Shown here piece by piece: positions 7,873-25,976 of a stretch of DNA of 25,976 bases. Source of the DNA: a virus (Duplodnaviria; Heunggongvirae; Uroviricota; Caudoviricetes); IMG/VR virus record IMGVR_UViG_2529293141_000017, positions 1 to 25,976 of that record. One strand, written 5' to 3'. A model generated the notes under the pieces. The model ran no database searches. It worked only from the letters and a program-made list of their open reading frames with translations, and was not told the DNA's origin. A program made the position numbers and the translations under genes. Position 1 is the stretch's first letter, and every line of letters begins with the position of its first letter.

Positions 7873-8994
7873 TTACCCTTCGAAGAACCAATACCCGCTA
7901 TTGACCAGCGCCGCGAGCATCGCGAGGAATGACGGATCTTCCAGCGCATCGCCAAAATTCTCCGCAGTCAGCGCAATGTTGCTGGCGAGTGCATCCAGTG
8001 CCGGACGGTGCGGGGAATCGATCTTCTCACCATTGGCATACACGTCGTCGCCAATGCGCAATACGCGCAGACCACCCAGGCGCACCAGCACTTCACCTTG
8101 TTTCAGCGCATCGTAGATTTCATCCGGCTGATAAGGCGGCTCTGGCGGCGCGATATCCAGTTCATGACGTGACTGGGATATAAACTCGCCAAACCATTGC
8201 TTAAAGTGTTCCGGCTGGTTGATCAATTCGAGCATCATCTCACGCAGTTTATCCATCTCTTGCGGCAGAACATCCGCAGGATGAGCGCGAGGTGGAACAT
8301 CCGGATCGCTGTAGTAGTTGCCGCCCAGTTCACGTTGCAGCACATAATCGGCAAATCCACTAATCAGTTCCCGCGTATTTGGCGCGCGAAAGCCCACGGA
8401 ATAGTTCATCGCATTTTCCAGCGCGTAGCCTTCATGCGGGAATCCTGGCGGAATATAAAGAATATCACCAGGCTCCAGCTCTTCATCGATGATGGCTTCG
8501 AACGGATCGACCTGTAACAGATCCGGATGTGGGCAGTGCTGTTTCATTTGCAGCTTTTCGCCCACTCGCCAGCGACGACGTCCGGTACCCTGAATGATAA
8601 ACACGTCGTACTGATCGAGATGCGGACCGACGCCGCCGCCGGGTACAGAAAAAGAAATCATCAGATCATCAATACGCCAGTCCGGTAGTTCACGGAACGG
8701 TCGCATCAGCGCGGCGGTCGGCTCATGCCAGTGGTTCACTGCCTGTACCAGTAATGACCAGTTGGTTTCACCGAGATGATCGTAGCTTTCGAACGGGCCG
8801 TGGCTGACCTGCCATTTGCCATCCTGGTGACTGACCAGTCGACTGTCAACTTCGCTTTCCATCGCCAGACCCGCCAACTCGTCTGGAGAGATCGGGTCAA
8901 TAAAATTATTAAAGCCGCGTTTTAACACCACCGGGCGTTTCTGCCAGTGACGTTCAAGAAAATCGGGCCAGTTAAGAGTGAGTTGGTATTCCAT
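7873..8994 (-). CDS. roxA: Ribosomal protein uL16 arginine hydroxylase (YcfD/RoxA, JmjC/cupin family)
   Basis: 373 aa from MEYQLTLNWPDFLERHWQKRP, in conserved synteny with pepT. Confidence 0.9.
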   Translation of the reverse strand: MEYQLTLNWPDFLERHWQKRPVVLKRGFNNFIDPISPDELAGLAMESEVDSRLVSHQDGKWQVSHGPFESYDHLGETNWSLLVQAVNHWHEPTAALMRPFRELPDWRIDDLMISFSVPGGGVGPHLDQYDVFIIQGTGRRRWRVGEKLQMKQHCPHPDLLQVDPFEAIIDEELEPGDILYIPPGFPHEGYALENAMNYSVGFRAPNTRELISGFADYVLQRELGGNYYSDPDVPPRAHPADVLPQEMDKLREMMLELINQPEHFKQWFGEFISQSRHELDIAPPEPPYQPDEIYDALKQGEVLVRLGGLRVLRIGDDVYANGEKIDSPHRPALDALASNIALTAENFGDALEDPSFLAMLAALVNSGYWFFEG

Positions 8995-9195
8995 GTTAAG
9001 CATCCACAGGCTGGTATCTGCAACCGATTATAACGGATGCTTAACGTAATGCGTGAAGTATGGACATATTTTATCAATTAGTGTTTTTTGCCGTTTCATA
9101 ATGTTTCAGGTTGTGCATTATGTTTTTGATTATAAACAGATTTGTGATTTTTCTTGTTCCAGCTTGTTTCACGTTGTAGCCCTTTGTGCAACGAT

Positions 9196-9221: not shown

Positions 9222-9242
9222 GTGATGACCGGATTCAAAATT

Positions 9243-10472
9243 ATGAGCAGAGCACTTAACAAACTGAGCGATACACAGCTGAGGAAAATCAACGGCACAC
9301 CCGCCCAAAAAACAGCCTTTCTTAATGACGGTGGAAACCTGAGCGTCAGGCATTCAACCAGTGGCCTTTTAACCTGGTATTTCACTTACAGGGCCGGAAC
9401 GGGAAGGGGGGCACCACCGGAACGCATTAAGCTGGGAAATTATCCTGATCTGAGCCTGAAATCAGCCAGGGAAAAAGCCGCCCAGTGTCGCGCATGGCTG
9501 GCAGAGGGGAAAAATCCACGTCATGAAATGAATTACACCGTACAGGAAGCGTTAAAGCCGGTAACGGTTGGCGATGCGCTCACCTACTGGCTTGAGTCGT
9601 ACGCAAAGGAAAACCGTGTGGATTATGACCCACTGAAAAAGCGGCTAAATAATCACGTAATACAGCACATTGGCCCTATGCCGCTGGATAAATGCGAGCT
9701 ACGGCACTGGCTGACCTGTTTTGATCGGGTGGCAAAGAAAGCCCCTGTTTCCGCCGGGTTCCTGCTACAGACATGCAAGCAGGCGCTTAAGTTCTGCAGG
9801 AAGCGGCGCTATGCAATCAGCAACGTTCTTGATGATATGAGTGTGGCGGACGTTGGGAAAAAACCGGATATAAGTGAGCGTGTCTTAAGTAACAAAGAAC
9901 TTGGCGAATTATTGCAGGCACTGGACAAAAAAATATTTTCCCCTTACTACGTCGCACTAATCCGCCTCCTGATTGTTTTCGGATGCCGGACAGTAGAACT
10001 GAGGTTATCGGAGATCGGCGAGTGGGATTTTACCGAAATGCTCTGGACCGTTCCGAAGGAGCACAGCAAAACGAAGGTAGCCATATTCCGGCCCATACCG
10101 GAAGCGATACTGCCGTTCGTCACGCAGCTGGTGGAGCAGAACAGGCACACGGGCTTATTGCTGGGGGAAGTGAAACAGGAAACCAGCGTATCGCAGTACG
10201 GCAGATTGGTGCACAGGAGGCTTAAACACCCTCACTGGTCACTGCATGACATCCGGCGCACCTTTACAACCATGCTGAACGATTTAGGCGTTGATCCTCA
10301 CGTCGTGGAGCAGCTTACAGGCCACCAGATGCCAGGAATGCAACGCGTGTACAACCATTCCCGCTATATTGATGCGAAACGCAATGCGCTTGATATGTGG
10401 GTGGAGCGGTTGGAGATACTGGCGGGAACACATGAAAACGTAACCACGCTACCAGTAACCAGAATAAAATAA
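9243..10472 (+). CDS. int: Tyrosine integrase (P4-type)
   Basis: N-terminal LSDTQLRKI...NDGGNLSV...WYFTYR arm-binding-like region, and a C-terminal catalytic region with HDIRRTF and a terminal RY...H. Alternative ATG at 9222. Confidence 0.88.
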   Translation: MSRALNKLSDTQLRKINGTPAQKTAFLNDGGNLSVRHSTSGLLTWYFTYRAGTGRGAPPERIKLGNYPDLSLKSAREKAAQCRAWLAEGKNPRHEMNYTVQEALKPVTVGDALTYWLESYAKENRVDYDPLKKRLNNHVIQHIGPMPLDKCELRHWLTCFDRVAKKAPVSAGFLLQTCKQALKFCRKRRYAISNVLDDMSVADVGKKPDISERVLSNKELGELLQALDKKIFSPYYVALIRLLIVFGCRTVELRLSEIGEWDFTEMLWTVPKEHSKTKVAIFRPIPEAILPFVTQLVEQNRHTGLLLGEVKQETSVSQYGRLVHRRLKHPHWSLHDIRRTFTTMLNDLGVDPHVVEQLTGHQMPGMQRVYNHSRYIDAKRNALDMWVERLEILAGTHENVTTLPVTRIK

Positions 10473-10846
10473 TTTTTTTCGTGTTTTTTCAGTATGCGCA
10501 TACTGGATAAGTGCACAGATACAACGTGAAACAATGTGCAATAACGTGACACAATCACGAACAAGAGGCCAAAAAGAATACAGATTTATAAGTTACTGAT
10601 TTTTAATGCTCAGCTGGTTTTTTATACATTAGTGAATTACGCGTTAAAGCGTGCGAAAAAAGGCATAAAACAAGATTTTATGCCTTTGTATTAACATGAA
10701 TTTAAATGATTTTATCCTGATTATTCCTCTTTCTGTAAACCATGCGACACCAACATTTGCCAACTCTGAATCATCCTGACACAATCAGACACATCCCAAC
10801 GCAATAGAACACGAAATAACTCTTTAAGAAACGAAAGGGGGCAATA

Positions 10847-11035
10847 GTGTTAAGCACTGATCGGTTTATACGTGAAAAAGAATGCGAAAAGCTAACAGGC
10901 CTTAGCCGCTCATGCCGCTACCGCCTGGAAAAGGCCGGACAATTCCCATCACGTCGTAAACTTGGCGGGCGTTCTGTTGGCTGGTCTTTATCTGAGGTTT
11001 TGGCCTGGAAGGATAGCTGCAAGGCAGTTCACTAA
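10847..11035 (+). CDS. alpA: AlpA-family (MerR/Xis-like) transcriptional regulator
   Basis: 62 aa with LTGLSRS..YRL...FP..RKLGGRSVGW, matching the AlpA pattern. GTG start with an AAGGGGG Shine-Dalgarno. Confidence 0.75.
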   Translation: MLSTDRFIREKECEKLTGLSRSCRYRLEKAGQFPSRRKLGGRSVGWSLSEVLAWKDSCKAVH

Positions 11036-11215
11036 AAAGACTGGCGGCACACAGCCACCACCAATCCATTATTGACCGATACCGGGATCTCGGTATCGGG
11101 AATAAACGCCATAATACTGAGGTATAACCATGATGAAATATACGCCCGTACAGGGGCGGGGATTCGTTCGCCCTGGTGAATCTGAAAAGCCATGCTATAG
11201 GGTATTTTCAGGCAT

Positions 11216-11243
11216 AAAAAAAGCGGTCCCGATATGGAACCGC
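11216..11243 (-). terminator. Rho-independent terminator for the minus-strand repressor cassette
   Basis: On the minus strand: GGCGGTTCC atatc GGGACCGC followed by T7. Confidence 0.45.
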
Positions 11244-11311
11244 CTTTCTGAACAATTAACCCGCTGCGCCGTATGTGTCAACAATCATAAGCCCGAACAT
11301 GATAACCGTGA

Positions 11312-11515
11312 TCAGGCTGGTGGGCAATTACCTTGCTTGTTGGGGCCGTATTGTGCTGCCATTTTCATCCGTTCAGAACGTGAATATTTTTTTAGAAACT
11401 CATCAAGGACAAAAGCGCATGGAGCGAATCTTTCTGATTCATGCTCGAGCGCCATATTTTCGTGCTCTCTGTTCGTTTTTTGCGATGGTGTATTGGTTGA
11501 TTCTTTATTGGTCAT
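11312..11515 (-). CDS. Hypothetical small protein (67 aa), second gene of repressor cassette A
   Basis: Paralogue of 12028-12255: shared MTN start and a conserved C-terminal F-x-L-D/E-x-F-x-K-Y-x-R motif. It is followed by a terminator. Confidence 0.45.
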   Translation of the reverse strand: MTNKESTNTPSQKTNREHENMALEHESERFAPCAFVLDEFLKKYSRSERMKMAAQYGPNKQGNCPPA

Positions 11516-11572
11516 TGTGTGTACCTGTAAAGCAATGCGCCGTAGTACCTCACGCCACGGCGCTGATAGTAA

Positions 11573-11752
11573 TTATTCTGATTCTTTGGCCTTGCGGCGC
11601 TGGCGGCGTTTGATCTCGCCTTTTGCTGCCGTAACTAGAAATCCGGCGGTACTTTCGCCAGGTTCTTTAAGTTGCTCAATATCGGTCATTACCTCATGCG
11701 GGATTCTGACCGTTGTCATTTGTGATTTTGCGTTCTTTGCACCTGTTGCCAT
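11573..11752 (-). CDS. Ribbon-helix-helix DNA-binding protein (59 aa), candidate island repressor, copy A
   Basis: Own translation MATGAKNAKSQMTTVRIPHEVMTDIEQLKEPGESTAGFLVTAAKGEIKRRQRRKAKESE, with a beta-strand / helix / helix pattern. AGGAGA Shine-Dalgarno 7 nt upstream. Divergent from a plus-strand promoter and operators. Confidence 0.55.
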   Translation of the reverse strand: MATGAKNAKSQMTTVRIPHEVMTDIEQLKEPGESTAGFLVTAAKGEIKRRQRRKAKESE

Positions 11753-11771
11753 TTCTGGTTCTCCTGATAAT

Positions 11772-11864
11772 CGGTGTATTTCAGTATACGCAAAAAAAAG
11801 ATAAAAAAAGTCTTGCGGTGTATTTCACCTGAATGTAGATTTAAAAATGAAGGTGAAATACACC
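11772..11864. promoter_or_regulatory. Operator/promoter region A: GGTGTATTTCACC in three copies, two forming a perfect 13-bp inverted pair
   Basis: 11817-11829 and 11852-11864 are exact reverse complements; a third direct copy lies at 11772-11783. The region sits between divergent genes. Confidence 0.45.
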
Positions 11865-11938
11865 CAAAACAACAACGCCCCGCAGTGATGGGAACACATA
11901 CGGGGCGTCTAACCAAACCATTAATTGAGGTAACGATT

Positions 11939-12010
11939 ATGGCTATAAAAGAGCATAGCTTACTCTTTATACACACACAAACGCCCCGGAAACGGAATAA
12001 TCCGTTTCAT
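11939..12010 (+). pseudogene. Truncated 5' remnant of an Icd-like gene (paralogue of 12685-12879)
   Basis: MAIKEHSLLFIHTQT... shares the M-x-x-x-H-x-x-x-L-x-HTQT start with 12685, then loses similarity where cassette B begins. Confidence 0.35.
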
Positions 12011-12027
12011 AGTTCGGTTTTGTGCAC

Positions 12028-12255
12028 TCATCCTGGCGGTCGGTTTTTGCCGGATTTAAGCCGCCGTGGGTATTTATCGACAAAATCTTCAAGGGCAAAT
12101 TTTTCTGGTGGCACTAAGCGCGGCGCTGGTGGTGGTATTTTTGTTCTGGTTAGTTCTTCCTCAACTCTGGCGCAGGCTTCTGACTGCCTTTGCCGGATGA
12201 TTTCATCATCTTGCGTTTGCGTGTCTTGTATTGGTGATAGTGTGTTGTTGGTCAT
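12028..12255 (-). CDS. Hypothetical small protein (75 aa), second gene of repressor cassette B
   Basis: Paralogue of 11312-11515, same position in the cassette. Confidence 0.5.
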   Translation of the reverse strand: MTNNTLSPIQDTQTQDDEIIRQRQSEACARVEEELTRTKIPPPAPRLVPPEKFALEDFVDKYPRRLKSGKNRPPG

Positions 12256-12312
12256 GATACTGCCCTGTAAAGCAATGCGCCGTAGTACCTCACACCACGG
12301 CGCTGATAGTGA

Positions 12313-12492
12313 TTATTCTGATTCTTTGGCCTTGCGACGCTGGCGGTATTCAACTTCCCGCTTTAATGCAGCTGTAACAAACTGCCCTGTACTTTCGCCG
12401 GGCATTTTTACCGCCTCAACATTGTTCATAACTTCATGTGGAACCCTTGCCGCAACTGTTTGTGATTTTGCGTTTACTGCTTTTGTCGCCAT
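12313..12492 (-). CDS. Ribbon-helix-helix DNA-binding protein (59 aa), candidate island repressor, copy B
   Basis: MATKAVNAKSQTVAARVPHEVMNNVEAVKMPGESTGQFVTAALKREV.... GAGGGG Shine-Dalgarno upstream. Divergent from the replication operon. Confidence 0.6.
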   Translation of the reverse strand: MATKAVNAKSQTVAARVPHEVMNNVEAVKMPGESTGQFVTAALKREVEYRQRRKAKESE

Positions 12493-12542
12493 GTTGAGCA
12501 CCCCTCATAAAAAACAAATGCAGTATGCAGGAAAAAAAACAA

Positions 12543-12594
12543 GTGTTCAACACTTGACGTGTTTAACACCTCGATTTAAATTGGTGTTCAACAC
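12543..12594. promoter_or_regulatory. Operator/promoter region B: three GTGTT(C/T)AACAC palindromes overlapping a TTGACG-N17-TAAATT promoter
   Basis: Palindromes at 12543, 12559 and 12584 bracket the -35 and -10 of the plus-strand promoter feeding 12685 onward. Confidence 0.5.
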
Positions 12595-12684
12595 CTTATT
12601 TAGGCAAGGTGTAGAAACGACGAAACCCCGCACTGTAGGAGCAGTAACGGGGCTTCTAACCAACAACGTAAACGAGGAGCCGTT

Positions 12685-12879
12685 ATGGTTGCCGTAAATC
12701 ATATACCACACCTTGTACACACACAAACGGCCTTTGTGTGGCGTTTTCTGGCACTGAGTGCCGGAGAATCTCAAATCATCCACGTAACCGCCTGGACGGA
12801 ACGCGAAGCGCGTAACCTTTGCCCGTCCGGTTGTGTTGCTGTATTTGCCGCCCGTATTCGCCAGGGGGTAGGCTTATGA
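12685..12879 (+). CDS. Small protein, possibly Icd-like (host cell division inhibitor family); first gene of the early operon
   Basis: 64 aa with a GAGGAG Shine-Dalgarno. The motif FVWRFLALS...TEREAR...FAARI resembles Icd-like proteins of P4-type elements, from memory only. Confidence 0.5.
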   Translation: MVAVNHIPHLVHTQTAFVWRFLALSAGESQIIHVTAWTEREARNLCPSGCVAVFAARIRQGVGL

Positions 12880-13109
12880 GCCAGGAAATCACACTACAAC
12901 AGGCAGCAGAACGCGCCCACCAAATCGAAGTTATTTGCGCACTGGCAGAGGATTACCCTGGCATGATGACCGACAGCGAATCAGGGGCAATCATCGGCTT
13001 ACTTAAACGCCTTAGCGGTGAGGTCTGCGTATTCCTGAGCGATGAACAGGAAAGAAGAACGCTTATTTCTAACGAAAAAAAATGCGGAGGGGTACACCAT
13101 GTGCAATAA
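12876..13109 (+). CDS. Hypothetical protein (77 aa)
   Basis: ATG overlaps the upstream stop (ATGA); GGGGGT Shine-Dalgarno; translationally coupled. Confidence 0.5.
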   Translation: MSQEITLQQAAERAHQIEVICALAEDYPGMMTDSESGAIIGLLKRLSGEVCVFLSDEQERRTLISNEKKCGGVHHVQ

Positions 13110-13341
13110 CATCCGTCCGGACGCAGCCGCCGCCGCACTCACTACGCTGATGCACGCGCTTATTGATATTGAATGCACGGCAGAGCTTGCACAAAAGGAA
13201 GAACGGGAGGAATACACATTGTTCGCCCTGGAATGTATCCGATACACCGCCACGCGGTCGCTGAATGACGCTAAAAATATTCTTGTTGCAGATTGTGAAA
13301 ATGGGGGGGGGTTATGCGTGATGATCGTTTTAATTCCCTGA
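13099..13341 (+). CDS. Hypothetical protein (80 aa) with a G9 tract near its 3' end
   Basis: GGAGGGG Shine-Dalgarno before ATG 13099; overlaps the neighbouring genes. Confidence 0.45.
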   Translation: MCNNIRPDAAAAALTTLMHALIDIECTAELAQKEEREEYTLFALECIRYTATRSLNDAKNILVADCENGGGLCVMIVLIP

Positions 13342-13547
13342 AACAAGAATTTTCCGGCGTTCCTGATGATGCGGCTGATGCGCTTTCGTCAATGCCAGAA
13401 CTTATTAGAGCGGCTTTTTTCTTACTTTCCACGAGAGAATATAAATCAACGGGGCTTGATGTACTGAATATCGCCGCCGATTATGCGGAATATGTGGCAG
13501 AGGCGCGTTACAGAAGAAAATTTCCTGAGGATGTAAGCCATGCGTGA
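13314..13547 (+). CDS. Hypothetical protein (77 aa)
   Basis: ATG directly after the G9 tract, which serves as its Shine-Dalgarno; operon context. Confidence 0.5.
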   Translation: MRDDRFNSLKQEFSGVPDDAADALSSMPELIRAAFFLLSTREYKSTGLDVLNIAADYAEYVAEARYRRKFPEDVSHA

Positions 13548-13773
13548 TATTTACCACGAAACAACAGAACGCGTATTTCTTGCACTTTCTCACAGTGAAA
13601 ACATGCTGGAAATATTGCGCATATGGCTTGAAACACTTGGCGACAATGAACGCGACAAACAAAAATCAAGAATTGTCACGGCATTAATAACGCTTCTTGA
13701 GCCTGTAATAATGGAACTACAAGAAATAGAGACATTGCACGACAGATATAACGAACAGCACACCGGAGAATAA
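13540..13773 (+). CDS. Hypothetical protein (77 aa)
   Basis: Start overlaps the upstream stop (ATGCGTGA); operon context. Confidence 0.5.
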   Translation: MRDIYHETTERVFLALSHSENMLEILRIWLETLGDNERDKQKSRIVTALITLLEPVIMELQEIETLHDRYNEQHTGE

Positions 13774-13778
13774 AAATA

Positions 13779-14078
13779 ATGAAACTTAAATATTCTGGCT
13801 TAACTGCCAGTGGCAACACTCACCCTAAATTTACGCGCGGTGATATTTACCGCGACCAGTACGGCGGTACGGTAATGATTAAGGGCGTGGCGGGACGGTG
13901 CGTAACTTACCGCCGTGAAGGTTACGAATATGATTGCGTGATGCCTGTTTATCAGTTCCGGCGTGATTTTTCTCTGGTACAGACCGCGCCGCATAACGTG
14001 CCCACCAGCAGGGAGAAAGCACGCGCCAATATTCAGAAGATGAAAAACATGATTAACGGATTCAGGGGCAAGAAATGA
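13779..14078 (+). CDS. Hypothetical protein (99 aa), translationally coupled to the helicase gene
   Basis: Stop overlaps the helicase ATG (ATGA). Confidence 0.55.
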   Translation: MKLKYSGLTASGNTHPKFTRGDIYRDQYGGTVMIKGVAGRCVTYRREGYEYDCVMPVYQFRRDFSLVQTAPHNVPTSREKARANIQKMKNMINGFRGKK

Positions 14079-15472
14079 AAAGCGCACCGAACTTAAAAAA
14101 ACAGCCTTACGACAAGATGACCGAAGTCATCATTTTTGCGGGTAGTGATGCGTGGGCACATGCGAAACAGTGGCAGGAACAGGACGGGCGACTGGCTGGC
14201 GATAATGTGCCTCCCATTGTGCTGGCTGATGATCAACTGGATGAACTGGCAGACCTGAGAATCATCGACGAGGGGCGCTATTGTGTCCGGCTGTACAAGG
14301 CAGGCCACATCAGGCCATCAAATATTAATGCCATTGCGCACAAGCTGGCGGCGGCGGGCGTAACTGATGCGAATTATTACCCCGAAGGGATACACAGCCA
14401 GAAGCGGGAGAACTGGCGCGAATATCTGGAACGGGAGCGGGGGAAAAAGCCAGGGGAAGAACACCACCAGCGAAAAACCACGCTACCGATGAGCGTTGGA
14501 TCTGCCGGATACGACACGCAATTAGATTACGTGGTAAAGGGGATTATTCCGGCATCGTCGCTTTGCAGCATATACGGGGCGAGCGGTTCCTATAAATCAT
14601 TCCTTGCGGGTTCGTGGGCGTGTCACGTTTCCACGGGCCGCCAGTGGGGAGGCCGCAGGGTGGCGCATGGCGCTGTTCTCTATGTGGTTGGTGAAGGCGG
14701 TATCGGCGTTCCGCGTCGTGTAAAAGCCTGGGAGGTTGTGCACGGTGAGCAGGTGAAAAATCTGTATCTGGTAAACCGTCCCATCTTTCCGGCGGTCCCG
14801 CTTGATGTTGATGAAATGGTTATCGCTGCCCGTCAGGTGGAGCGGGAAACGGGTAAACCTGTACGCATGATTATTCTGGATACGCTGGCGCGTTGCTTTG
14901 GTGGGAATGATGAAAATGATTCCCGTGATATGGGGGCGTTTATCCGTGGTTGTGACGAACTGAAACGACGCACAGGGGCCACGGTGCTGGTGGTTCACCA
15001 TTCCGGCAAGGATGAGACGAAAGGCGCGCGCGGTTCCAGTGCATTTCGTGCATCACTGGATGCTGAATACCGGATACGCAGGGAGGACGCAGGAAGCGAA
15101 GCGCTGGTTATCTCATGCACCAAAATGAAGGACGCGGAGGAACTCAAAGAAGCCGCATATGACTTACGCGTGGTGGAGCTGTTTACCGACGCTGACGGGG
15201 AGTTAATCACGTCGCTGGTGGTGGTGGATAAGCCGCGCCCTCCCGTTGAACTGGAGCGCATCGAGGAGGCAGGCAACAAGACGGAAAACCATACCGCACT
15301 ATGGGGGTGCATCCGTTCACGCACACAGAACGGCGACAAGTGCACGATCCCGCTGTTACGTGATGACATGAAACGGCTTGGGTATGACGTGAAAAATATG
15401 CGGCGATGGTTAGCCAAACTGGAAAAAGACGCCGTGATTTACATTGATGGTGATGATGTAGGACCACTGTAA
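14075..15472 (+). CDS. Replicative ATPase/helicase (RecA-fold, RepA/AAA_25-like) with an N-terminal domain of unknown role
   Basis: Walker A GASGSYKS, Walker B-like ILDTLARCFGG, and VVHHSGKD...GARGSSA motifs. Confidence 0.8.
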   Translation: MKSAPNLKKQPYDKMTEVIIFAGSDAWAHAKQWQEQDGRLAGDNVPPIVLADDQLDELADLRIIDEGRYCVRLYKAGHIRPSNINAIAHKLAAAGVTDANYYPEGIHSQKRENWREYLERERGKKPGEEHHQRKTTLPMSVGSAGYDTQLDYVVKGIIPASSLCSIYGASGSYKSFLAGSWACHVSTGRQWGGRRVAHGAVLYVVGEGGIGVPRRVKAWEVVHGEQVKNLYLVNRPIFPAVPLDVDEMVIAARQVERETGKPVRMIILDTLARCFGGNDENDSRDMGAFIRGCDELKRRTGATVLVVHHSGKDETKGARGSSAFRASLDAEYRIRREDAGSEALVISCTKMKDAEELKEAAYDLRVVELFTDADGELITSLVVVDKPRPPVELERIEEAGNKTENHTALWGCIRSRTQNGDKCTIPLLRDDMKRLGYDVKNMRRWLAKLEKDAVIYIDGDDVGPL

Positions 15473-21431: not shown

Positions 21432-21552
21432 TGCTGTATGACGGGGTGGGGGGGCGTTTTCAGGACAAACCCGACCCCGCCGGGCACCGAACGCCTCCTC
21501 AAATTTTTATGCACGGGAATTTTTTGAAAAATAATCTGGCGAAAAAATAAGC

Positions 21553-24515: not shown

Positions 24516-25976
24516 TTATTCATCTTTCGGCGCAGAATGCTGGCGACCAAAAATCACCTCCATCCGCGCACCGCCCAGCATGCTCTCTCCGGCGACGATT
24601 TTACCCTCATATTGCTCGGTGATTTCGCGGGCTACCGCCAGCCCTACACCTTGCCCAGGGCGTAAAGTATCAACCCGTTGACCACGGTCGAAAATGACCT
24701 CTCGCTTGCTTAATGGAATACCGGGGCCATCATCCTCGACCACAATATAGAGATGCTCGTCGGTTTGCCTTGCAGAAATTTCGACAAACTCGAGGCAATA
24801 TTTACAGGCATTATCCAGCACGTTGCCCATCACCTCGACAAAATCGTTCTGCTCACCGACAAAGCTGATCTCTGGCGAAATATCGAGAGAGATATTGACC
24901 CCTTTGCGTTGATACACTTTGTTCAGCGCTGAGGTGAGATTGTCCAGCAGTGGGGCGACCGGATGCAGCTCGCGGCTGAGCAATGTCCCGCCGCGCATAC
25001 TGGCACGATGCAGGTAGTAGCCAATTTGCTGTGAAATGCGGCTGATTTGCTCCAGCATTACCGGCTCAGCATCACTGACGCTCATCTTTTCACTACGCAG
25101 AGAACGCAGCGTACTTTGCAGCACCGCCAGTGGCGTTTTCAGACTATGGGTCAGGTCGGTGAGCGTCGTACGGTATTTGTCGTAACGTTCGCGTTCACTT
25201 TTTAACAATCGGTTCAGGTTTCGTACCAGACTGGTCAGTTCTCGCGTTGTGGCTGGATTGAGCAATTCGCGGTTATGTTCTTCCAGTTCGCGGACTTCTT
25301 TTGCCAGGGCTTCGATGGGGCGTAAACTCCACCAGGCGGCGACCCACAGCAGCGGGATCACTAACAGCAGATTGGCTGAGAGCACATAGATAAACCAGCT
25401 CCAGACCATATAGGAACTTTTTAGCTCCACCGGAATGGTATCCACCACCACAATGGTTAATTTTGGCATCCGCGATGTTGCCGGGTAGACGTTTACTGCC
25501 ACCGAGTGGGTCATCTCCGCGTCGTCATCATCTTCCCGCACTTCCTGCAACTGTTGCTGTATCGAATGATCTCCACTCAGCAAGAGGCTGGTATCGTTAA
25601 CATCCGCTTCAATTTCATGAAAACCATTCGATTTCAGCCAGTCAGGCTGGATCATCTTCATCAGCCAGGGCACGTCACGTTGCGCCCATAAAAGCTGCCC
25701 GTTCTCATCATAAATTAGCGTCATGGTGGGGCTTTGCTTGTCGATATTTTCGGGTAACTCGACATGCAACTTATTGTTTTCCCACTTCGCAAGGGTATAG
25801 AACAGATTGCTCTCGCCACGTAACAGCCGAAACGTAGTTTTATCGAAACTGACGCTATAACCGATCAGCGCGACCATTCCGTAGGCAAGCGAAAGCACCA
25901 GTACTACCGCTGCCGTTGCCAACAGAAAACGTACCCGCAGCGAGAGCGGGAAAAAAAGACGCAGTAATTTTTTCAT
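24516..25976 (-). CDS. phoQ: Sensor histidine kinase PhoQ
   Basis: 486 aa starting [25 protein letters not shown]..., with a periplasmic sensor region, HAMP and a HisKA/ATPase core; the start lies at the window edge. Confidence 0.96.

Follow-up and report, generated by a model that had tools for sequence, protein, structure and literature searches.

Phase-variable poly-G/C tracts are known from Neisseria, Haemophilus and Campylobacter, and homopolymer contingency loci have recently been reported in the coliphages T2 and T4 (10.1101/2025.10.21.683753). The locus described here, a run of nine G at the junction of two small genes, resembles these systems in that it is a coding G run of at least 7 nt. 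Its length changes in 1-2 nt steps between near-identical genomes, as slipped-strand mispairing predicts, and the reading frame follows the length. It differs from classical contingency loci in its setting, a putative phage satellite of mismatch-repair-proficient E. coli. It also lies at a gene junction, where it is predicted to double as a Shine-Dalgarno (SD) sequence, and it has no obvious OFF frame, since its three frames give a fusion, separate proteins or a 9-aa tail.

Two other described arrangements are close. Coupled overlapping genes of the ATGnnTGA type in phage operons are exactly matched by the states with 8 or 11 G (ATGCGTGA). Unlike in those genes, the predicted SD is here a mutable homopolymer, so that the geometry of the coupling can vary; with the nine G of the window, the upstream gene stops 25 nt beyond the start of the downstream one. 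The frame transitions collected by GeneTack (PMC3711429) likewise involve adjacent co-directional genes that are fused or split depending on the genome, with some copies annotated as frameshifted. Those cases reflect a one-off mutation, whereas the toggle here appears recurrent and reversible, acts through a single homopolymer and, on one allele, has hundreds to thousands of contigs in each state.

The closest described element is the cf-PICI EcCIEDL933, which agrees in gene set and, at ~15 kb, in size; O157:H7 genomes hold a homologous junction with seven G and fused genes. By definition, cf-PICIs combine PICI-type int, alpA and rep genes with their own packaging module in ~15 kb, without tail genes (10.1101/2022.09.08.507074). 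In a second report, a gene downstream of alpA is described as variable between cf-PICIs and of unknown function (10.1101/2025.02.11.637232). Text searches of these two papers gave no passage on the run or on the small ORFs, and a literature search returned no paper linking PICIs with homopolymeric tracts.

The stretch analysed, hereafter the window, is 25,976 nt of viral DNA (IMG/VR record IMGVR_UViG_2529293141_000017). A mobile element of ~15 kb is inserted in it between roxA/ycfD and phoQ, with ~14.3 kb from integrase to TerL (Table 1). Pfam matches after the SSB gene give a packaging module of HK97-type capsid, prohead protease, portal, head completion protein, HNH, TerS and TerL. Judged from its genes alone, the element has the gene set and size of a cf-PICI. 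Four small overlapping ORFs (ORF0, ORF-A, ORF-B and ORF-C) lie between the Icd-like gene and DUF4222, and their setting places ORF-A and ORF-B in the predicted early operon of a capsid-forming PICI like EcCIEDL933. No Rfam match was found in 10400-14200.

Table 1. Features of the window around the G run and in the surrounding element.
Feature	Position	Strand	Remarks
roxA/ycfD	7873-9003		Borders the insertion
cf-PICI-type phage satellite	9222-23554	+	Predicted from Pfam matches and RefSeq annotation of relatives
Tyrosine integrase	9222-10472		First gene of the element
AlpA	10847-11035		After the integrase; then the Icd-like gene
ORF0	12876-13109	+	77 aa; phrog_1478; overlaps the ORF-A start
ORF-A	13099-13341	+	80 aa in the G9 state; phrog_5146 match
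G9 homopolymer	13303-13311	+	Last Gly codons of ORF-A and predicted Shine-Dalgarno region of ORF-B
ORF-B	13314-13547	+	77 aa, own ATG; phrog_24341 match; equals the C-terminal half of fused phrog_2512
TGA inside ATGCGTGA	13319-13321	+	ORF-A stop in the G8/G11 state; out of frame in the window
TGA used by ORF-A in the G9 state	13339-13341	+	25 nt inside ORF-B
ORF-C	13540-13773	+	77 aa; phrog_2196; coupled to ORF-B via the ATGCGTGA overlap
DUF4222	13779-14078		Downstream of ORF-C
AAA_25/RepA-type helicase	14075-15472		Then SSB
phoQ	24516-25976		Borders the insertion

The run reads GGGGGGGGG and lies inside the 3' end of ORF-A, as the initial annotation had placed it. The final codons of ORF-A are GAA AAT GGG GGG GGG TTA TGC GTG ATG ATC GTT TTA ATT CCC TGA, and 2 nt separate the end of the run from the ATG of ORF-B. 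A homopolymer scan of the window found no other run of at least 9 nt, the next longest being A8 and T8 runs and one G7. A G9 or C9 is expected 0.28 times per window. Because 17 of 100 dinucleotide shuffles also hold at least one, the existence of the G9 is by itself statistically unremarkable; its significance comes from comparison with relatives. The G7 lies at 21448-21454, between the HNH and TerS genes, and is a G6 in the two related loci with matching flanks, a small sample.

Each added or removed G shifts the frame in which ORF-A leaves the run, giving three states. When the number of G is 1 modulo 3 (G7, G10, G13), ORF-A reads through into ORF-B (...ENGG(G)VMRDD...) and an A-B fusion of ~144-154 aa results. 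When it is 2 modulo 3 (G8, G11), ORF-A ends in ...ENGGGYA*, its stop being the TGA of ATGCGTGA, which overlaps the ORF-B start. When it is 0 modulo 3 (G12 and the window's G9), ORF-A ends in ...ENGGGLCVMIVLIP* and gains 9 codons (LCVMIVLIP). The ATGCGTGA overlap of the G8/G11 state recurs at 13540-13547, where it joins ORF-B to ORF-C; both of these proteins start with MRD.

The first three E. coli relatives already differed. NCTC9112 has G7 and one 148-aa CDS in RefSeq, ST130 has G8 and two CDSs with an 8-nt overlap, and JNEC-KY202 has G12 and a 'frameshifted' pseudogene. These three forms of RefSeq annotation bear out the earlier expectation that tract length would alter the C-terminus of the upstream protein. 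For loci with G9 or G12, PGAP calls one 'frameshifted' pseudogene in some genomes (L002, 1759-2210; L100, 1312-1757) and two hypothetical proteins in others. One E. coli locus is thus annotated as one gene, two genes or a pseudogene by its G count alone. Since the annotation depends on the count, pipelines and pangenomes will split the locus into several 'gene families', and PHROGs already lists the fusion and each of its two halves as families of their own.

Tract length was then compared more widely across related isolates, as the initial annotation had proposed, and it varies. A flank-only pattern scan of IMG/VR, together with the first three E. coli loci and the window, gave 93 junctions: 24 with G7, 35 with G8, 18 with G9, 4 with G10, 2 with G11, 1 with G12 and 9 with interrupted tracts. 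The interrupted tracts are GGGGGTGG (three), GGGGTGGG (two), G8TGG (one) and GGGGAG7 (three). In the other 84 of the 93 islands, which are otherwise divergent and mosaic, the run is uninterrupted. A second sample was a 60-row spread from 889 matching complete E. coli genomes. It was used in place of counts by BLAST identity bands, which were dropped as confounded by partial matches. It held G7 in 18 rows, G8 in 12, G9 in 11, G10 in 1, G11 in 1 and an interrupted tract in 1; in the other 16 rows ORF-B is preceded by a different gene. All O157:H7 and O145 genomes sampled here belong to the G7 class.

A census by exact-sequence look-up among ~15 billion proteins extended these counts (Table 2). 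Each query fixes the ORF-A allele, and for fused states the count covers only those ORF-B alleles that were used as queries. Homologous islands range from 5 to 13 G overall, and tracts of 6 or fewer are rare on both ORF-A alleles. The length distributions are unimodal and show no periodicity of 3 bases. Each of the three frames is common, and none is being purged.

Table 2. Contigs encoding each state of the junction, by ORF-A allele.
Tract	State	Window's ORF-A allele	Second allele
G5	Separate	0	11
G6	Tailed	0	5
G7	Fused	156	258
G8	Separate	925	at least 1000
G9	Tailed	298 (the window's exact 80-aa product)	at least 1000
G10	Fused	63	162
G11	Separate	61	47
G12	Tailed	9	8
G13	Fused	2	0

Comparison of close relatives suggests that the tract changes recently. 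Two islands (L023 and L067) differ by 8 mismatches over 6801 nt (99.87% identity), and the single 1-nt gap between them matches G10 versus G9. Another pair (L048 and L060) differs by 19 mismatches over 6836 nt (99.69% identity), and the single 2-nt gap matches G7 versus G9. The slipped-strand length changes predicted from the window are therefore seen both as the G5-G13 range in homologous islands and as the sole indel in two near-identical pairs. Length is heritable: islands with identical ±600-nt flanks share the same tract length in 10 of 10 pairs, and with any flank difference tract identity falls to a background of ~0.25-0.33. The hints on switching within a clone are mixed, as length is randomised at ~1% flank divergence or less, yet the sampled O157:H7 genomes are uniformly G7.

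The variation is specific to this run. Four other homopolymers in the same loci are nearly invariant in length: A8 at 13075, A7 at 14095, T7 at 10473 and T6 at 13415. As in phase-variable homopolymers, the tract has at least 7 nt, is polymorphic in length between constant flanks and changes the frame.

The A8 run (13075-13082) lies within the 3' end of ORF0, just 5' of the ORF-A start, and among 20 IMG/VR loci whose flanks match it is A8 in 19 and A7 in 1. Relatives whose junction reads NEKNAEGYMCNK, which implies one A fewer and a 3-nt deletion, encode ORF0-A-B triple fusions of 220-221 aa (P0003, and P0008 on 52 contigs).

A homopolymer of this length may also be miscalled, and the window's G9 could in truth be G8, or G7 or G10. 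Two observations point that way. Relative to Nissle 1917, EcN_Sk lacks one base in each of three homopolymers within 3 kb, the G run among them, and PGAP labels G9/G12 copies 'frameshifted'. Against it, the exact 80-aa G9 product of the window is found on 298 independent contigs and that of the second allele on at least 1000, many from short-read surveillance assemblies. G9 is present in 18 of 93 islands, and tract length is consistent among islands with identical flanks. A miscall in the window is thus very improbable. Because each state is carried by hundreds to thousands of contigs, artefact is excluded as a general explanation.

The suspicion of a sequencing-error hotspot, raised with the first description of the run, fails for the window's G9 and holds for some long-read assemblies such as EcN_Sk. 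Part of the tract variation in closed genomes would accordingly appear to be artefact. The EcN_Sk assembly (L098, NZ_CP172017.1) differs from Nissle 1917 (L097, NZ_CP171242.1) by G5 to G4, A8 to A7 and G8 to G7 and is otherwise identical within these 3 kb. This suggests that the three deletions are uncorrected long-read assembly errors. In RefSeq they give rise to a 'fused' CDS that is spurious and to an Icd-like pseudogene with a frameshift. The G8 of Nissle 1917 against the G7 of EcN_Sk was rejected as a case of within-strain instability in view of the two other homopolymer deletions in 3 kb. A comparison of O111:H8 strains with G8 and G9 was also rejected, as the tracts lie in different islands that are not comparable. 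The G run can in this respect serve to flag homopolymer errors in long-read assemblies.

Distant relatives support the proposal that the run serves as the SD of ORF-B. A search for contigs encoding the proteins gave two distant loci and a scan of genome contigs gave one Shigella locus; profile and single-protein scans of viral contigs for distant homologues returned nothing useful. At the equivalent junctions the distant relatives carry a canonical GGAGG SD, caGGAGGTGGGGcATG and tcGGAGGGctggtcATG. In these loci caGGAGGTGGGGc and then ATG follow the ORF-A homologue, and tcGGAGGGctggtc and then ATG precede the ORF-B homologue. Their starts and stops overlap in the same manner as in the G8/G11 state. 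The run is G-rich, sits where the homologues have their SD and, by computation, pairs with the anti-SD at a usable spacing.

Pairing with the anti-SD was computed against the 3' end of 16S rRNA, with a minimum of 4 nt required between the duplex and the AUG. The predicted energy is -2.0 kcal/mol for G5, -4.3 for G6, -7.8 for G7, -8.9 for G8, -10.0 for G9 and -10.8 for G10, with a plateau beyond. This steep modelled rise from G5 to G9 fits a natural floor at G7. Together with the GGAGG at the same place in distant relatives, the predicted pairing supports the Shine-Dalgarno reading.

ORF-B has a similar leader where it follows a different gene. In islands with ORF-B behind an unrelated 121-aa gene, the junction reads cagGGGGGG(G)taaac and then ATG, and G6 versus G7 changes the upstream C-terminus from QGGKHA* to QGG*. 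A putative G-run SD of variable length thus appears to accompany ORF-B in this second context as well. JE86-ST05, EcPF14 and O111:H8 8E (L093 ~688-700, L094 and L095) show this arrangement, with cagGGGGGG(G)taaacATGCGTGA before ORF-B.

A hairpin that would sequester the SD, formed by the G run and UUCCC at 13334-13338, was considered and dropped. Its predicted energy of -12.1 kcal/mol is not significant (z = -1.33), and the two segments show no sequence variation for covariation.

The G9 state could also be a site of programmed recoding, in which -1 frameshifting on G GGG GGG or transcriptional slippage would yield the A-B fusion next to the separate proteins at a set ratio. ORF-B does lie in the -1 frame relative to ORF-A in this state. 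The run matches the X XXY YYZ pattern, if only formally, and the fused protein forms a family with many members. Recoding sites keep their length and frame among homologues, however, whereas all three frames are common here. Downstream structure is not significant (13312-13400, 89 nt, -20.2 kcal/mol, z = -0.54). All-G heptamers are poor shift sites, and slippage by E. coli RNA polymerase is documented mainly on A/T runs. We regard recoding as most improbable.

The observed part of the case consists of the length variation, its coding consequences and the run sitting at the position of the relatives' SD. On balance we favour the reading that the G9 is a genuine, heritable, slippage-prone ribosome-binding-site tract whose drift is tolerated, and consider this probable. 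Replication slippage would add or remove G, and each step would shift the exit of ORF-A among the three states. The core of ORF-A would be made in every state. ORF-B would be expressed in all of them too, either from its own ATG behind the G-rich SD or within the fusion, where it makes up the C-terminal half, and in G8/G11 the ORF-A stop would be coupled to the ORF-B start. The switch between fused, separate and overlapping genes thus probably leaves both genes on. Since the core and ORF-B would be made in every state, length would alter their tethering, the tail of A and the strength of the ribosome-binding site, not the presence of either protein.

Drift from G7 to about G10 would be largely tolerated under this reading. 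Tracts below 7 would be selected against, as ORF-B would lose a usable SD. The SD role would account, without any adaptive value of the length changes, for both the persistence of the run and the rarity of short tracts, which should be mutationally stable.

The same data may be read as an adaptive contingency locus. The run would then be kept for its mutability, producing satellite subpopulations with A and B fused, separate or tailed and with varied ORF-B dosage, as a bet-hedge in the encounter with helper phages or host defences. Several findings are in keeping with this. The run is uninterrupted in 84 of 93 divergent, mosaic islands, all three frames occur at high frequency, and stable tracts of at most 6 G are rare even though such lengths are expected to be mutationally absorbing. 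The alternative upstream module also has a variable G6/G7 run before ORF-B. T2 and T4 offer a precedent for contingency loci in coliphages (10.1101/2025.10.21.683753), and the region downstream of alpA is noted to vary between cf-PICIs (10.1101/2025.02.11.637232).

The low number of interrupted tracts (9 of 93) and the near-absence of short ones could also reflect selection for mutability and not for ribosome binding. Neither ORF-A nor ORF-B has a true OFF state, however, and the length distribution resembles unconstrained stepwise drift above a floor imposed by the ribosome-binding site. G7 appears stable across the O157:H7 genomes sampled, a point against both readings. The SD role explains the persistence of the run equally well. 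We therefore hold an adaptive contingency role to be possible but doubtful. A more specific form of it, in which slipping among G7-G10 would continuously yield fused, separate and tailed cf-PICI subpopulations with graded ORF-B dosage and so diversify the response to, or interference with, helper phages, we consider unlikely. If true, this would be the first bet-hedging switch based on an SSR known from a PICI, and one that toggles fusion and fission, not ON and OFF.

The junction is a well-populated natural fusion/fission toggle at a homopolymer that is predicted to double as a ribosome-binding site, and it sits in a phage-satellite family under active study. Should its states differ in phenotype, contingency-locus bet-hedging would extend from bacteria and virulent phages to satellites.

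The two proteins give few clues to function. In the G9 state ORF-A consists of a 68-aa core, GGG and the frame-dependent tail LCVMIVLIP. The exact ORF-B protein of the window is found on at least 1000 contigs, and in other islands ORF-B sits behind a different upstream gene. The fused A-B form corresponds to phrog_2512 (154 aa), while A alone and B alone form separate PHROGs; all matched PHROG families are annotated as of unknown function. Neither ORF has a Pfam match, and the family profile matched none of the PDB sequences. At 50% identity the family has only 42 representatives among 1.84 billion proteins. An AF2 model of the fused form is all-helical and of low confidence (pLDDT 56, pTM 0.43), with a disordered linker at 69-96. 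ORF0, ORF-A, ORF-B and ORF-C (72-80 aa) are all predicted to be helical and may be distant paralogues.

Around the junction, at ~13290-13375, islands hardly differ in nucleotide sequence over the final ~25 nt of ORF-A and the initial ~60 nt of ORF-B; this invariance is partly biased, as the search pattern itself fixed 9+13 nt. Elsewhere in ORF-A, and in the C-terminal half of ORF-B, the sequences form distinct allelic types. The pattern resembles that of a recombination joint at which modules have been shuffled.

Upstream of the four small ORFs, the window holds a diverged tandem duplication (11505-11629 and 12245-12369) with a 125-nt core, 82% identity and a spacing of 740 nt. It covers two small minus-strand ORFs (11573-11752 and 12313-12501) homologous to genes annotated as YlcI/YnfO family in relatives. 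The duplication also covers Icd-like remnants, and RefSeq relatives have partial Icd-like pseudogenes there.
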